Below, one piece after another: positions 1 to 26,543 of a stretch of DNA of 32,000 nucleotides. Position 1 is the first letter of the stretch. The number at the start of each line of letters is the position of its first letter. The notes beneath the pieces were generated by a model that searched no databases, was not told the origin of the DNA, and saw only the letters and a list, made by a program, of their open reading frames with translations. The position numbers and the translations under genes were made by a program. The stretch comes from Candidatus Saccharimonadota bacterium (lineage in GTDB: Bacteria > Patescibacteriota > Saccharimonadia > Saccharimonadales > Saccharimonadaceae): assembly GCA_002421785.1 (NCBI GenBank), contig DIRZ01000003.1:370700-402699 (forward strand), written 5' to 3'.

Positions 1-1263
1 CGAAGTAGACGACAAAATCGGCTCACCAGCAGCACCCCTCTGTTTCATGGCATCGACGGTTTGACGAATCGGTAATGGATCATTTGCATTCTTATTGTAG
101 TTTCCGATGGTATATACCTGGGCGACACCGAGCGACAATGTGGCAAACAGTGCGACGACGACTGGAACAGCAACACGCGGGCGTGTCCCATTCATCACCG
201 TCGCAAATGCGATTCCGATTGCCGCAAACCAAAATGGTACGCTTGGCAACAAGTACCGATCAACGAACGATGGGCGAAGTGGCGGCAATGATAACCCTAA
301 GAGCAAGAGAAGCGGTACAATCGCCATAACGAGCATCAAAACATACAGAGAGCGCTGTTCCCCGCGCAGCTTTCGATACGCAAGGACAAGACTCACGATG
401 GTCGTCGCCATAACGAACAGCATCAGCATCGCTAGCCATCCCTGCACCTCATGATTCTCACGATACATGAAGATATTTGTCAGAAAATTAAAGGGCGTTG
501 TAACACTGATTGGCCCTATCCAGAACCCGCCACCCTGCACGGTTGCCATTTGTTTTACCATGTACGGAAGCCATGGCAAGAATAAACCAATAGCAAGCAC
601 ATGAGCCAATACCCACTCTTTCGTCCAAAATACCTTAGCGGTTTTGCGTATGTTTTTGCGCCGTAGGGCAATGTAGCGCCAAGCCCAGTGAGTAATCCAC
701 ATGATTGCGGTGAAGTAGTGCGTCCACATGCCTAACGACACAAGCACCCCATATGTCACCCACTTCCAGCGTGCGGGCTTATGTGTTACATCGACAAGTA
801 CATACGTAGCAGCAGCCACAATCGCCATCACCACACCGTACATTCGCGCTTCTTCAGAATAGCGAATCAGCATGGGAGAAAGCGAGAGCAGTGCAATAGT
901 CCAGGCACCAACACGCACACCAAATGCCCTGCGAACTAGCAAGTACACAAACACGATAGCGATCATAATCATCACCATGCTCAATGAACGTAGCGCAATC
1001 TCGCTATTACCAAACCAGGTCTGCCATATCTTTAACATCCAATAATACAACGGAGGATGGACATCTGTGCTTGTGTATTTAGCAACTTCCAAAAAATTAA
1101 ATCGAATCAAGTACAGTCCATACGCCTCATCAAACCATACTGACCAACGAGCCATATTGCCGAGCGAAAGTAGTCCAAAGAGGCTCAAGCCGACGCCCAA
1201 TATTGCCCAGTCCTTATGCGTTAGCGCTTCGTTTTTTCGAAAGATCTTTTGAAATATGTTCAT
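1..1263 (-). CDS. GT-C fold membrane glycosyltransferase (PMT/ArnT-like, family 39/83 type), 3' end runs off the window
   Basis: Absent from the ORF track because it is open to the window edge. Hand translation from ATG at 1263..1261 gives MNIFQKIFRKNEALTHKDWAILGVGLSLFGLLSLGNMARWSVWFDEAYGLYLIRF... with no stop down to position 1 (421 codons). It is multi-pass hydrophobic and has a first-loop DE motif (WFDEAYG), typical of PMT_2/ArnT enzymes. Confidence 0.6.
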   Translation of the reverse strand, partial: MNIFQKIFRKNEALTHKDWAILGVGLSLFGLLSLGNMARWSVWFDEAYGLYLIRFNFLEVAKYTSTDVHPPLYYWMLKIWQTWFGNSEIALRSLSMVMIMIAIVFVYLLVRRAFGVRVGAWTIALLSLSPMLIRYSEEARMYGVVMAIVAAATYVLVDVTHKPARWKWVTYGVLVSLGMWTHYFTAIMWITHWAWRYIALRRKNIRKTAKVFWTKEWVLAHVLAIGLFLPWLPYMVKQMATVQGGGFWIGPISVTTPFNFLTNIFMYRENHEVQGWLAMLMLFVMATTIVSLVLAYRKLRGEQRSLYVLMLVMAIVPLLLLLGLSLPPLRPSFVDRYLLPSVPFWFAAIGIAFATVMNGTRPRVAVPVVVALFATLSLGVAQVYTIGNYNKNANDPLPIRQTVDAMKQRGAAGEPILSSTS

Positions 1264-1335
1264 AGGTCTTTCTATTGTAGTGGGTCATAGGGCACGTCGC
1301 AAGTGATACCCCTAGCATTCTCTGTTAGTTTGCGA

Positions 1336-1341
1336 TATAAT
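1336..1341 (+). promoter_or_regulatory. candidate -10 box (TATAAT) for tRNA-Pro
   Basis: gaTATAAT lies 18 nt upstream of the tRNA 5' end. The -35 is weak (TAGCAT, 17-nt spacer). Confidence 0.3.
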
Positions 1342-1359
1342 ATCGAACGAAACACCTAT

Positions 1360-1435
1360 CGGGGTGTGGCGCAGTTGATAGCGCGCTCGGTTTGGGACCG
1401 AGAGGTCGAAGGTTTGAGCCCTTTCACCCCGACCA
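1360..1435 (+). tRNA. tRNA-Pro (anticodon UGG), 3' CCA encoded
   Basis: Hand-folded cloverleaf: acceptor CGGGGTG/CACCCCG, D arm GCGC-AGTTGATA-GCGC, anticodon arm CTCGG-TTTGGGA-CCGAG, variable AGGTC, T arm GAAGG-TTTGAGC-CCTTT, discriminator A, CCA. Confidence 0.9.
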
Positions 1436-21464: not shown

Positions 21465-21941
21465 TTATTGGCCCCGGAGCGTTAGTGCACACATAATTGC
21501 AGCCGCAAGCGCATCAGCACAGTCGTCTGGCTTAGGCACATCCGTTAGGCCCAGGTGCATTCGCACCATTTCCTGCATCTGTTTCTTATCTGCACGTCCA
21601 TATCCAGTCATCGTTTGCTTAATCTGCAGGGGAGTATACTCCTCAATACGGAGCCCCGCTTGCTGTCCAGTGAGCATCGCCACACCACGCGCATGTGAAA
21701 CGCTCATAGCGGTCGTAACATTCTGGTTAAAAAAGAGCTTTTCGATTGCCATAACAGTAGGAGATGTCTCAGCGATAATTTCGGTCAGTCCGTCGTAGAT
21801 ATCCACCAAGCGATCGGGCAGGGGAGTGTGTGGGGGTGTCCGAATAACGCCAGCTGTCACAAGCTTCGTCTTCCCTTTTGTTATATCGATGACGCCAAAT
21901 CCCAGAATCCCTGTGCCAGGATCAATACCGATTATTCTCAT
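21465..21941 (-). CDS. ruvC: Holliday junction resolvase RuvC
   Basis: MRIIGIDPGTGILGFGVI, MAIEKLFF and DDCADALAAAI. Start set to ATG 21941 with AGGGGA upstream. Confidence 0.9.
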   Translation of the reverse strand: MRIIGIDPGTGILGFGVIDITKGKTKLVTAGVIRTPPHTPLPDRLVDIYDGLTEIIAETSPTVMAIEKLFFNQNVTTAMSVSHARGVAMLTGQQAGLRIEEYTPLQIKQTMTGYGRADKKQMQEMVRMHLGLTDVPKPDDCADALAAAIMCALTLRGQ

Positions 21942-22578
21942 CGATTCCCCTTCCCGCCTGCAAAAAAGCGATGTTTGTTTCAAGCCGAGCCACCCATACT
22001 TCTAAATCTTCTGCCGTAAGTATGCGCGCCAAGTCCGACTGCGCTTCCTGCAGCAATTGTTCGGCGAACGCCGTAGTCCGCGCTACAGTCTCGTTCCAGC
22101 TCGGCGCACCCCATTCCTCGCGCATTTTACCTAAACTATCCAAAAATACCTCGTAGCCCGGCGCTGCCATATAACCAATGTCAGCAAAATGCAGTGCAAT
22201 CCCTTGGTTGCTTAACTTCGGGTGGTTACTGACTGTCGTATCGATAATTGATGCCGCAACGATCCCCAGCTCTTCCCCGGAAAGCTCGGGCATTGCCGAA
22301 TGCGCAAGCGCAGCGGACCGGTATTCTTTGGTGGGAAATCCCTCGAGCGGTACATGATAGCCCGCGTCATGCCAGGCAGCTGCAACCAAAAGCAGCGACC
22401 GATTCACTTGGCTACCTAGCTTCCGCCTCGACTTGCACGCAAGGTCATCAGCGTGCCAGTAAACGTCAACCGCATGCCCCCAGTTATGGTACGGTAAGGC
22501 TTCAGGACCAGGCATTTGATAGTATTGCTGTGCGCGACCAACATATTCTTCCACCTGTTCCCGTGGTAATTCACTCAT
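21922..22578 (-). CDS. HD-domain metal-dependent phosphohydrolase-like protein
   Basis: H...HD pattern: YHNWGHAVDV, then about 35 aa later LLVAAAWHDAGY. No closer family assignment is possible by eye. Confidence 0.5.
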   Translation of the reverse strand: MSELPREQVEEYVGRAQQYYQMPGPEALPYHNWGHAVDVYWHADDLACKSRRKLGSQVNRSLLLVAAAWHDAGYHVPLEGFPTKEYRSAALAHSAMPELSGEELGIVAASIIDTTVSNHPKLSNQGIALHFADIGYMAAPGYEVFLDSLGKMREEWGAPSWNETVARTTAFAEQLLQEAQSDLARILTAEDLEVWVARLETNIAFLQAGRGIDENNRY

Positions 22579-22592
22579 ACTTTCAGTATACC

Positions 22593-22860
22593 CTATGCTT
22601 TGCGGCGTACTATGCGCGTAGCCAGCTCAGAAATTTCGCGTCGCCATTCCCACACCGCATAGGCGCTGGCCGCGGTCAGGATTCCCGCAATCGCCCACCA
22701 CATTCCCGCTGACTGTGCCGTCTGCTTCATTGGCTCAACGGGATACGCGGCCAAAGGCACATCGCTCAGCGGTATTTTTCGACATCGATTAGTGCTCGGG
22801 TTGCGCTCATAGCCTTCATCGCATGGCAGTAACTCTGCAACCGCACTCGCAATACTGCGG
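22593..22860 (-). other. out-of-frame 3' continuation of the LTD gene (fourth repeat + TM anchor)
   Basis: Shifting one nt at the CCC run (minus strand, 22861..22859) reads RSIASAVAELLPCDEGYERNPSTNRCRKIPLSDVPLAAYPVEPMKQTAQSAGMWWAIAGILTAASAYAVWEWRREISELATRIVRRKA, then a stop at 22595..22593. Confidence 0.65.
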
Positions 22861-24195
22861 GCAACGATTTGTCAACGGATTGCGCTCCTGGCCCTCTCCG
22901 CAGGGAACCAGCGATGCGCTCACCGATGAAGGAGCCACGACAGATCGACAACGGTTCGTTGCAGGATTACGCGACTGACCTTCGGGACAACTCGCGAGCT
23001 CATTTACCGCTTCTTCGATAGCACGACAGCGGTTCGTTTCGGGGCTACGGTACTTGCCCGCCGGGCACTCCACTATCCCAGAACTATCGGCTGGCACGCT
23101 CACGATAACAGGAAATTCATTTGCACCTAGCGGGTTAGGCAGCGACGTCCACACCCACTCGCCTGCCGCGTTTAGTGCATAACCAAATTGCTGCTTTGTA
23201 GTACCGGCACTTTCATAAGAGCGCAGAGTATTTTGATACACTTTCATACCCCAAGCGTCTTCAAGCCATACGTAGCCACCACTATTTGTTAGGCTTAATC
23301 CCGCACCGTCATCAGTTAGGTGAACCGTTAAATATGCTTGTGGGGCAAGCGAGCCGTAGGTATCAAGCATAATAGTATTCGCGGTTGTTCGGTTCGTTGA
23401 TGAGCTATCCGTACGGAGCGCATACGCAGTCAAATCAATCGTCTCGCTCGTCCCGTTATGGAGCTTTACGTAGTCATGACAGTAAATGTCAGTATCGAAC
23501 GGATCGCAATTTTTTGCATAGGGATAGATTTCGACGACCTCCAAGCCTGGAGCGTCGGGAACTACATACAGACCATGGTCATAGAGCTGCGTTGCTGGCG
23601 CCGGTGCGAAGTTCGTTAGCGTCGACGAGTAGCCATCAGTAATCGGCACACGCCTCATCGGTTCGTCATACGCGCCACTCGGACTCTTCAAAACATATTC
23701 ATTTGTACTCATCGTCTGGGACGCAGGGACTGTTGTGAGCGAATACAGCTTGTCGTTAGGTTTCATTCCCGACCAGGTTGCCATCTCAAAAGAAGCATTG
23801 CTGACACCACGCCCAGCGTCGACGACCACATGCGAACCCGGTGTGATGTACCCAGGAACTCCGCCGCCGCGCTGCGCAATTACCATCGTTACGACGCCAC
23901 TTGTGATTAACTTTTTATCAGCGCCCAATGTTCCAAACGTACCCCGTATCGTCCAGCCGTCAAGAAGAATCGGCGAATCGCCCCTGTTATACAGCTCGAC
24001 GAGCTGAATATCGCGACCAGCATCATCCCACTGATACGCCGAGATTTCGAGCGCCGAGGAATCAAGCCAATACGTCGTAGGTGCGGGTTCGGCAACAACA
24101 GTCGTCGCATACATTCTGGGCGTAGGCATATACGCCATCACTAGGATCGTACATAACGTCATCAAAAATAATCGTCGTCTCGGCGTTGCGCTCAC
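22816..24195 (-). CDS. secreted lamin-tail-domain (LTD) protein with C-terminal CxxGxxRNPxTNRCR repeats (frame ends prematurely)
   Basis: Two LTD-like segments (IQLVELYNRGDSPILLDGWTI and LEVVEIYPY...YVKLHNGTSETIDLTAYAL). Three CP(A/E)G..R.P.TNRCR repeats. Preferred start is GTG 24195 (GAGGGG 6 nt upstream), giving the signal-peptide-like SATPRRRLFLMTLCTILVMAYMPTPRMYA. The track start is ATG 24267. Confidence 0.7.
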   Translation of the reverse strand: MSATPRRRLFLMTLCTILVMAYMPTPRMYATTVVAEPAPTTYWLDSSALEISAYQWDDAGRDIQLVELYNRGDSPILLDGWTIRGTFGTLGADKKLITSGVVTMVIAQRGGGVPGYITPGSHVVVDAGRGVSNASFEMATWSGMKPNDKLYSLTTVPASQTMSTNEYVLKSPSGAYDEPMRRVPITDGYSSTLTNFAPAPATQLYDHGLYVVPDAPGLEVVEIYPYAKNCDPFDTDIYCHDYVKLHNGTSETIDLTAYALRTDSSSTNRTTANTIMLDTYGSLAPQAYLTVHLTDDGAGLSLTNSGGYVWLEDAWGMKVYQNTLRSYESAGTTKQQFGYALNAAGEWVWTSLPNPLGANEFPVIVSVPADSSGIVECPAGKYRSPETNRCRAIEEAVNELASCPEGQSRNPATNRCRSVVAPSSVSASLVPCGEGQERNPLTNRCPQYCECGCRVTAMR

Positions 24196-24301
24196 ATAAA
24201 TCCCCTCATGTATTGGTTGCTGCACTAGGTATACAGTGATGCGTGGTACCACGTCAAACATGAGCATGACAAAAACGTCAATTTTACATCAACAGTAGGA
24301 A

Positions 24302-25027
24302 TTAGTCACCAAGTTCGACGGTAATGTCGGCGTTTGTGTGCACCGCCACAACATCATCAAGATCGTCAATCGCGTCCATAATTTTTAACACTTTACGTGC
24401 CGTTTCTGCGTTATCAATTGGCACCATTGCGTTGGGCACGTACTGCAACTCTGCGTCCTCAACTGTCAAACCAGAGTCAACCAGTGCTGTGCGGACTTTA
24501 GCAAGATCTTTCATTTCTGTGTACACGACGATTTCACCGTCTTCTTCTACTGCGTCTTCGGCGCCCGCATCAAGAATCGAAAGCAAGGCATCTTCGCCGC
24601 TTGCTGCAACACGAATCACGCCTTTACGAGTAAACTGGAACATCACACTACCAGCATCCGCCATCGTACCGCCGTTTTTCGTCAATGCAGTGCGGACTTC
24701 AGGGTACGTGCGGTTTTTGTTGTCGGTCGCTGTTTCCACGATAATACCCACGCCGCCAGGACCATAACCCTCGTACGTCGCTTCCTCGAGTGCCGCGGCG
24801 CCCTTGTCGGCCACGCGGTCGATTGCGCGTTGGATGTTGGCCACTGGCATATTGGCCGCCTTAGCCTTTTCGATGGCAAGCGCCAACGAAGAGTTCATTG
24901 TCGGATCAATTCCACCGCGAGCCGCAACGGCTATTTGATTACCGATTTTAGTGAAGACTGCACCACGTTTCGCGTCGTTCGCGCCCTTATCTCGTTTGAT
25001 TTTACTCCATTTGCTGTGTCCAGACAT
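24302..25027 (-). CDS. yebC: YebC/PmpR family DNA-binding transcriptional regulator
   Basis: MSGHSKWSKIKRDKGANDAKRGAVFTKIGNQIAVAAR... is the canonical YebC N-terminus. Full length, 241 aa. Confidence 0.95.
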   Translation of the reverse strand: MSGHSKWSKIKRDKGANDAKRGAVFTKIGNQIAVAARGGIDPTMNSSLALAIEKAKAANMPVANIQRAIDRVADKGAAALEEATYEGYGPGGVGIIVETATDNKNRTYPEVRTALTKNGGTMADAGSVMFQFTRKGVIRVAASGEDALLSILDAGAEDAVEEDGEIVVYTEMKDLAKVRTALVDSGLTVEDAELQYVPNAMVPIDNAETARKVLKIMDAIDDLDDVVAVHTNADITVELGD

Positions 25028-25067
25028 GACAATACTCCAGTAGTTATTAGTGGTATCCGTTTCCCAT

Positions 25068-25076
25068 AGTATACCA
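25068..25076 (-). promoter_or_regulatory. extended -10 promoter (TGgTATACT) for yebC, with conventional leader
   Basis: Minus-strand TGGTATACT lies 40 nt upstream of ATG 25027. GGAG lies 7 nt upstream of the start. Confidence 0.4.
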
Positions 25077-25088
25077 TGGTGACATCTG

Positions 25089-26543
25089 TTACTCCACTAT
25101 AGATGCCTCATACAGTCGGTATCGTGTGCGCCACTTCACGTACCAGCACGCCGCCGCTATGAGCCCGTACCATACCACTGCACCCCACCACGGGAATACC
25201 ACCTCACTTTGTGCCCACGGCACGCTTGCGCACCATTCGACCACAGCCACCATACTGCGAAGGACGAGTTCGGCCGGCCAACCTATTATCGGCGCAGCTG
25301 CTGGTAGCACGTAGCTTCCCAGCCCTGCGATAAACGTAAGGAGCATAGCCAGTGGAATAAATGGCAAGATGATAAGGTTACTCAAAATAGCAATATTACT
25401 AAATTGCCCAAAGGCGACCAGAATAATAGGCGCAGTTGCAAGCTGCGCCGAAATAGTTTCGCCAAGTATCTGCGGGACGAGTCGAGGTTTTTCATTCCCA
25501 TAAAAGTACGCCTGAAGAAGCGGCGCAACAATCATCACACCAGCAAATGCCGCGAAACTTAGCTCCCATCCTAGGTTTCCCCATGCATAACTGGGGTTTA
25601 CAAGCACCGTCGCTGCAGCGACCAATGCGAGCAGTGTTACAGGGTGAAATTTACGGCCATAATACCAAGCAAGCATACTAAGACTCGCTACCAGCCCCGC
25701 ACGAACCATACTCGGGCTCGCGCCTGTCATCGCAATAAACCCAACAATCAACACTCCGCCAGATAACGTGGCTAAATATTTTGAAACACGGGCAAAGGCA
25801 CGCCGCGCCAAACGTACAAGAATCGTTAAATTATAACCGCTCGCCACCACGATGTGCGTCAGCCCTGCAACAGTTAATGCCTCGACAAGATGGGGCGGAA
25901 GGGCGCTTTTCTGGCCAAGTAAATAGCCAATGCCTAGGCTTGCCGCTGGCTCCTCAATCGCTTTCCTCACGTGCTCCGCAAAATCATCGCGTACCATGAG
26001 CGCCACATCGCCGGGCTGCTCTCGCTCCACTTTTACGAGCGTCGCGCCGGTCATGGAGGCAGTAAAACTTCCGAACCCTGGCTGCAGCCGTCCATCAAGC
26101 GTCATGACATCACTCCGTCTCAGTACTGTTTGTCCCGCAACTACCGTCACCCACAGGTCGCCCGGCAGACTACGTGCATCAAGTGTCACGCGAGCCAGTT
26201 TTGCGACGGCCTGGCCTCTGTTATTCGTTTCAACATCATCGGCGATATGACCTCTTATTTGTACATGTTTCCCATAGAGTGCGTCGTACACCGCTACCGA
26301 TTCTTGAGTGGCGCTCCCCCGCCACATTCCCAGGCAAACCCCACCTATGAGTGCCGCCGCGAGCATAAAACGCCTGGGGCGCATCGCCCATAGAAGCGTC
26401 AACAATCCTGCCGTGAATAACCACGTCAACCCACCCGTGTGCGGCACCCACCGCGCACTCCACACTCCTATTACCACACCTAGGCACGCGGCCGTAAAAT
26501 GCCACGTCGGGTGAATCTTTGCCAGCAGCCAAGAACGTCTCAT
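25089..26543 (-). CDS. comEC: ComEC/Rec2-type DNA internalisation channel (OB-fold N-domain + competence TM domain, no beta-lactamase-like domain)
   Basis: N-terminal TM helices, an OB-like soluble insert (VQIRGHIADDVETNNRGQAVAKLARVTLD), then a polytopic competence-domain region (GLTHIVVASGYNLTIL, GASPSMVRAGL). The protein is 484 aa and ends right after the TM domain. Confidence 0.8.
   Translation of the reverse strand: MRRSWLLAKIHPTWHFTAACLGVVIGVWSARWVPHTGGLTWLFTAGLLTLLWAMRPRRFMLAAALIGGVCLGMWRGSATQESVAVYDALYGKHVQIRGHIADDVETNNRGQAVAKLARVTLDARSLPGDLWVTVVAGQTVLRRSDVMTLDGRLQPGFGSFTASMTGATLVKVEREQPGDVALMVRDDFAEHVRKAIEEPAASLGIGYLLGQKSALPPHLVEALTVAGLTHIVVASGYNLTILVRLARRAFARVSKYLATLSGGVLIVGFIAMTGASPSMVRAGLVASLSMLAWYYGRKFHPVTLLALVAAATVLVNPSYAWGNLGWELSFAAFAGVMIVAPLLQAYFYGNEKPRLVPQILGETISAQLATAPIILVAFGQFSNIAILSNLIILPFIPLAMLLTFIAGLGSYVLPAAAPIIGWPAELVLRSMVAVVEWCASVPWAQSEVVFPWWGAVVWYGLIAAACWYVKWRTRYRLYEASIVE

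Follow-up and report, generated by a model that had tools for sequence, protein, structure and literature searches.

A gene for an anchored lamin-tail-domain (LTD) surface protein is interrupted by one extra nucleotide in the window, by which we mean the whole 32,000-nucleotide stretch of DNA that was analyzed. The nucleotide lies in a CCC run on the minus strand (GGG on the plus strand) where relatives have CC. It is probably a genuine, very recent and strain-specific insertion of a single C that truncates the protein. Taken more widely, a recent frameshift particular to this strain, leaving either a nascent pseudogene or an anchorless variant and including a small chance that the released form is functional, is likely. 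No new mechanism is revealed, and an ordinary mutation is the most likely cause. The interest is more in the gene than in the frameshift: it encodes an uncharacterized anchored LTD protein that occurs throughout the Saccharibacteria and lies between yebC and ruvC in almost every locus that was examined.

Position of the break and the orphaned C-terminus

The minus strand reads ...AAT CGT TGC CCG CAG TAT... at the break. As encoded, the protein ends in ...NPLTNRCPQYCECGCRVTAMR at a stop codon at 22818..22816, and the last 14 residues after the CCC run (PQYCECGCRVTAMR) are out of frame. When one C is removed, TGC CCG CAG becomes TGC CGC AGT, which translates as C-R-S, and 88 codons are open up to a TAG stop at 22595..22593. 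SIASAVAELLPCDEGYER is a peptide of this restored tail and NPLTNRCPQYCECGCR is a peptide of the frame-0 tail. The features of the locus are listed in Table 1.

Table 1. Features of the interrupted LTD gene (positions in the window)
Feature	Position	Strand	Basis or remark
Truncated CDS as encoded	22816..24195	-	459 aa from GTG 24195; ORF listing and translation
Mechanical ORF	24267..22816	-	ATG 24267 start, 483 aa
CCC run with extra nucleotide	22859..22861	-	Comparison with relatives
Orphaned C-terminal coding region, 88 codons, RSIASAVAELLPCDEGYERNPSTNRCRKIPLSDVPLAAYPVEPMKQTAQSAGMWWAIAGILTAASAYAVWEWRREISELATRIVRRKA then stop	22596..22859	-	Translation, tblastn, codon differences
Fourth Cys repeat, CDEGYERNPSTNRC (CxEGxERNPxTNRC)	22782..22823	-	Translation; predicted beta-hairpin, P0001 residues 484-495
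Transmembrane helix, GMWWAIAGILTAASAYAVWEW, with the family-invariant EWR motif at its end	22644..22706	-	Translation, alignment, AF2 helix 515-554
Basic cytoplasmic tail, RREISELATRIVRRKA, and ancestral TAG stop	22593..22643	-	Translation
Mechanical 55-aa ORF, GTG start, inside the orphaned tail	22593..22760	-	ORF listing

A tblastn of the intact orthologue P0001 (555 aa) against the window resulted in exactly two HSPs, which abut at 22861/22859. The first covers P0001 residues 1-467 in frame -3 with 97% identity, and the second covers residues 468-555 in frame -1 (22859..22596) with 100% identity. The restored protein as a whole is 97% identical to P0001 with 100% of the query covered, and its restored 88 residues are the same in both. 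The restored frame of the tail differs from that of L002, a relative with 84% identity, by 33 synonymous and 7 non-synonymous codons. This synonymous excess indicates that the tail evolved as protein-coding sequence in the restored frame. Compared with close strains, the tail has zero to three codon differences and zero stops. The tail has thus not decayed, and the frameshift event must be very recent.

The original prediction, made from the DNA letters, had placed a one-nucleotide frame break at this run and had taken the shifted frame to be a real C-terminus (a fourth Cys repeat, a transmembrane anchor and a basic tail) and not a chance reading. The translation of the ORF, the split in the tblastn alignment and the CC of relatives bear out the break, which had been placed accurately to the base, and the C-terminus is identical to that of intact orthologues. 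It had also noted that the restored stop falls just before the next gene. The TAG is indeed 14 nt upstream of the ATG at 22578 of a gene for a 218-aa protein, and this distance is equally short in intact relatives.

Still encoded in frame are a Sec-type signal peptide, two LTD beta-sandwiches, the first of the two Cys hairpin-helix-hairpin modules and, after it, the third hairpin. The orphaned region holds, in order, a helix (SIASAVAEL), the fourth Cys hairpin, a linker, the transmembrane helix and the basic cytoplasmic tail. Both Cys of the fourth repeat, as well as its G and R, are invariant in 120 homologues. The full family architecture is thus not found in a single frame in the window's ORF, and it is found in one frame after one C is removed. 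The 55-aa ORF inside the orphaned tail is not an independent gene. Its exact sequence is absent from the protein collection searched, and by inspection its GTG is not preceded by an SD-like sequence.

The start of the gene is probably the GTG at 24195 rather than the ATG at 24267. An SD-like GAGGGGA (24206..24200) precedes the GTG, and the N-terminus that begins there (MSATPRRRLFLMTLC...) has the typical layout of a signal peptide. NCBI annotates the equivalent 533-aa form for the close relative P0130, in agreement with the GTG start. Gene callers place the start at ATG 24267 or 24261 (24196..24267, minus strand). The first ~25 residues from the ATG starts have a conservation of 0.03 and a pLDDT below 50. 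The annotation of the locus should read as a frameshifted gene or pseudogene, not as a 483-aa protein followed by an empty 240-nt gap.

Domain layout and conservation of the protein family

A search with the restored protein returned more than 1,400 homologues, of which the best was P0001. Pfam LTD (PF00932) matches the protein in two stretches with 61.4 bits (cut-off 34.3), and PF00932 is precomputed on most of the homologues. PF25314 (TNFR_nem) reached 23.8 bits, below its cut-off of 27, in one 17-residue stretch over one Cys repeat. Membership in the TNF-receptor-like Cys-rich domains was rejected because of this sub-threshold score; the resemblance is that of a Cys hairpin. No NCBIfam model matches the LTD protein or the downstream 218-aa protein. 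We did not find a paper on the protein family in a literature search that combined lamin tail with Saccharibacteria, Patescibacteria, TM7 and epibiont.

An AF2 model was built for the intact orthologue P0001 with a 120-sequence alignment (mean pLDDT 84.8, above 90 over both sandwiches). The model has an N-terminal helix at residues 27-44 (signal peptide), beta-sandwiches at 71-221 and 240-372, hairpin-helix-hairpin modules at 403-440 and 458-495, and a long C-terminal helix at 515-554 that comprises the transmembrane segment and the basic tail. Each hairpin is bracketed by two invariant Cys. The original prediction had counted four Cys repeats. The fourth is present in the restored frame, but the repeats are better grouped as two hairpin-helix-hairpin modules. 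In Foldseek the sandwiches match the lamin A/C Ig fold (1ifr) with a probability of 1.0 and a TM(target) of 0.53. Beyond the lamin Ig fold, Foldseek against the PDB gave only generic beta-sandwich matches (TM about 0.1) and no functional lead. The presence of a signal peptide and of Cys pairs, taken with the positive-inside rule, points to a type I topology, with the LTD domains outside on a disulfide-braced stalk and the tail in the cytoplasm. The window protein resembles other bacterial LTD (PF00932) proteins in its two LTD-type Ig-like beta-sandwiches. Unlike those, the Saccharibacteria family adds the two Cys-bonded hairpin-helix-hairpin modules, the C-terminal transmembrane anchor and the invariant EWR.

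The break lies inside the most conserved 20-residue block of the family (P0001 residues 461-480, NPLTNRCRSIASAVAELLPC), which has a mean column conservation of 0.90. The second stalk module (PCGEGQERNPLTNRCRSIASAVAELLPCDEGYERNPxTNRCRK; 22782..22900, minus strand; P0001 residues 453-495) is nearly invariant and far more conserved than the LTD domains, in homologues that are ~42-46% identical overall. That a stalk segment should be almost invariant even between proteins with ~45% overall identity is of interest in itself. Synonymous changes are frequent in the module; thus the constraint acts on the protein. This conservation suggests a conserved binding partner or an assembly interface.

Relatives at the site and the origin of the extra base

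The relatives L001 (ENA ERZ27232223) and L002 have TTG-CCGT and TTG-CCGG at the site. In L006 (Logan SRR18111923) and L007 (GCA_032229745.1) the site reads TTGCCGCAGT, compared with TTGCCCGCAGT in the window, and is the same as the window minus one C. L001, L006 and L007 are all intact. They have 98.1-98.6% nucleotide identity to the window over 4.6-7.3 kb, and thus belong to its species-level lineage. The window differs from L001 by only two indels over 7.3 kb, and the one in the CCC run is the sole coding indel. More widely, the site is uninterrupted in 80 out of 80 metagenome loci; one of them stops before residue 500, at a contig edge and still in frame. All 120 aligned family representatives have the fourth repeat as well as a hydrophobic helix near the C-terminus that ends in [WY]EWR, together with a basic tail. 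The comparison with orthologues that had been proposed with the original prediction therefore has a clear outcome: relatives are uninterrupted at the site, and none of the close strains, the 120 representatives or the 80 metagenome loci ends at the window's premature stop. Across these sequences the break is unique to the window's strain and is neither a hot spot nor a conserved feature.

The second indel relative to L001 is an intergenic G near 21465, in the spacer that separates the ruvC stop from the start of PBP1A (21448). It, too, alters the length of a short G run by one nucleotide (TAA-GGTATAAT vs. TAAGGGTATAAT). The MAG 'Candidatus Saccharibacteria bacterium 32-50-10' has the orthologue in two pieces, at the ends of two contigs (OYX38850.1 with 349 aa and OYX35495.1 with 198 aa, both partial). 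This assembly break is possibly due to strain variation in the gene.

One reading of the extra C is an error in sequencing or consensus, in which the true sequence is CC, the 533-aa protein is intact, and the additional C is an artefact that was carried into the deposited genome. A one-nucleotide length change in a short homopolymer is the classic type of indel error, and a perfectly intact tail is what would be expected had nothing happened. However, window-identical DNA (100%, including the CCC) occurs in Logan contigs of two runs, SRR943321 (6.8 kb) and SRR943318 (4.4 kb), and in an 812,921-bp ENA contig assembled with MEGAHIT; the identity of the window to these contigs is 100% over 4.4-7.5 kb. 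NCBI, JGI/IMG, Logan and ENA all contribute the 483-aa truncated protein to the public collection. Since the CCC is reproduced by different assemblers in at least two runs, an assembler artefact or a random read error is largely excluded, although the assemblies with CCC may share the read sets of one project and are independent in assembler, not necessarily in library or sample. The lack of any other coding indel in 7.3 kb against a 98% relative also argues that the assembly is not prone to indels. A systematic, chemistry-specific read error at the CCC is unlikely, and we know of no systematic indel site for short-read chemistry in a run of 3 nt, which counts against an error as well. A scan of metagenome contigs with a DNA pattern that allows CC or CCC gave zero matches. 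Overall, we consider an error unlikely, though a reading to be kept in mind.

Slipped-strand mispairing at the C run could also toggle the protein between an anchored (ON) and a truncated or released (OFF) form. The length of the run does vary between strains (CC vs. CCC), and contingency loci usually encode surface proteins, as this gene does. In phase-variable surface genes of Neisseria, Haemophilus and Campylobacter the frame of a surface protein is likewise set by homopolymer length. Contingency tracts are typically 7 nt or longer. The run here has 3 nt (2 nt in relatives), far short of the lengths at which slippage becomes appreciable, and there is no G7 or C7 run anywhere in the window. 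Unlike those contingency loci, it shows neither a detectable within-population mixture of lengths in contigs nor recurrent breakage in relatives. The Logan contigs of the two runs traverse the site unbranched, all 80 related loci are in frame, and the intact version of the exact allele, in three start variants, is absent from a collection of 15 billion proteins. Phase variation is thus highly improbable.

The sole point in favor of programmed +1 ribosomal frameshifting, or of other recoding that rebuilds the full-length protein, is that the frame after the break is intact and offset by +1 from the one before it, as in prfB (RF2). A shift that preserves the conserved C-R-S-I-A could take place only at UGC C CGC, where tRNA-Cys on UGC cannot re-pair with GCC. 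By inspection, CGU UGC CCG CAG has no A-site stop, no obviously hungry or rare codon and no upstream SD-like stimulator. The window lacks the slippery codon, the in-frame stop at the point of shift and the SD stimulator of prfB, and its orthologues do not share the break. Conservation among orthologues is characteristic of recoding sites. All relatives examined here (four close relatives and the 80 metagenome loci) have a plain uninterrupted ORF. Programmed frameshifting and transcriptional slippage were both rejected on these sequence grounds and because the break is not conserved. We regard recoding as extremely improbable, and phase variation and recoding together as very improbable.

Three causes had been left open in the original prediction. 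A recent inactivation is the one that is favored; an assembly artefact is largely excluded, and a homopolymer switch has no support. The break is like other frameshift pseudogenes in bacteria, which have a one-nucleotide indel in a short homopolymer, an early stop after a small number of out-of-frame codons, an intact downstream frame and intact close relatives. Compared with ordinary frameshift pseudogenes it has nothing unusual, except that it hits a gene conserved across the phylum and cleanly removes a membrane anchor. Genomes of the Saccharibacteria are very small and poor in pseudogenes.

Fate of the truncated protein and the surrounding genes

The ancestral protein carries a signal peptide, two LTD beta-sandwiches, two Cys-bonded stalk modules, a C-terminal transmembrane helix and a basic cytoplasmic tail. 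By placement on the AF2 model, the inserted C shifts the frame between the third hairpin and the helix at 470-477, within the family's most conserved block. The product as encoded closes with 14 aberrant, Cys-rich residues that include three extra Cys. Missing from it are the helix, the fourth hairpin and the anchor; the second stalk module is cut in half, and nothing of the membrane anchor is left. If stable and exported, the truncated protein would be released rather than anchored, and it would probably misfold in the second module. Going by conservation, the truncated protein is most likely non-functional and the locus a nascent pseudogene. The strain is abundant enough to yield an 813-kb contig; thus the loss is at least tolerated.

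The mutation could also be genuine without a loss of function, if the anchorless ectodomain is exported, released and selected as a decoy or as a way to shed a target of phage or host recognition. Everything from the signal peptide through both LTD domains to the first stalk module is still read in frame, and the strain with this allele is abundant, as its long contig indicates. The LTD ectodomain (22861..24195, minus strand) has 13 synonymous and 14 non-synonymous codon differences between the window and L001, which hints at pressure on the exposed part. However, there are no anchorless members among the 120 representatives or the 80 loci, the most conserved block is destroyed, and three unpaired-looking Cys are added. 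The allele was found as a single occurrence with no sign of spread beyond one population. A functional released form is therefore quite improbable. It is similarly doubtful, with a slightly better chance, that natural selection favored the truncation as a knock-out or release variant of an uncharacterized surface protein found across the phylum, e.g., a phage receptor or host-contact factor. If it did, the strain would be a natural mutant in which a core envelope protein proves dispensable, or is selected against, in certain conditions. For the preferred reading, a genuine and recent frameshift, the practical value would be that of a natural anchorless mutant, useful for studies of the envelope or of host contact in Saccharibacteria epibionts.

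The downstream 218-aa gene (21922..22578, minus strand) has counts similar to those of the ectodomain, with 13 synonymous and 13 non-synonymous differences between the window and L001. The comparison genes have 31 and 8 (ComEC) and 16 and 5 (PBP1A). The LTD gene and the 218-aa gene may be under relaxed or diversifying selection, as far as such small counts can be read. A scan for promoters and terminators around the gene gave counts that were not above those in shuffled sequence.

The order ComEC - YebC - LTD gene - ... - RuvC is common to the window and its close relatives. Of the 33 distant loci that have long flanks, 30 contain YebC, 29 ComEC and 28 RuvC, and the order is kept in about 85-90% of distant loci. 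The genes yebC and ruvC are adjacent in many bacteria, and here the LTD gene and the 218-aa gene are inserted between them (21465..26543, minus strand). At the left end of the window, positions 1..1360 contain no listed ORF, and an Rfam search of this region gave zero matches. It was considered as a second anomaly and rejected, as a minus-strand membrane-protein gene from ~1263 runs off the left end and for that reason is absent from the ORF list. The 218-aa gene, which matches neither Pfam nor NCBIfam and has an HNWGHAVD motif, is detectable in only 6/33 of the distant loci.
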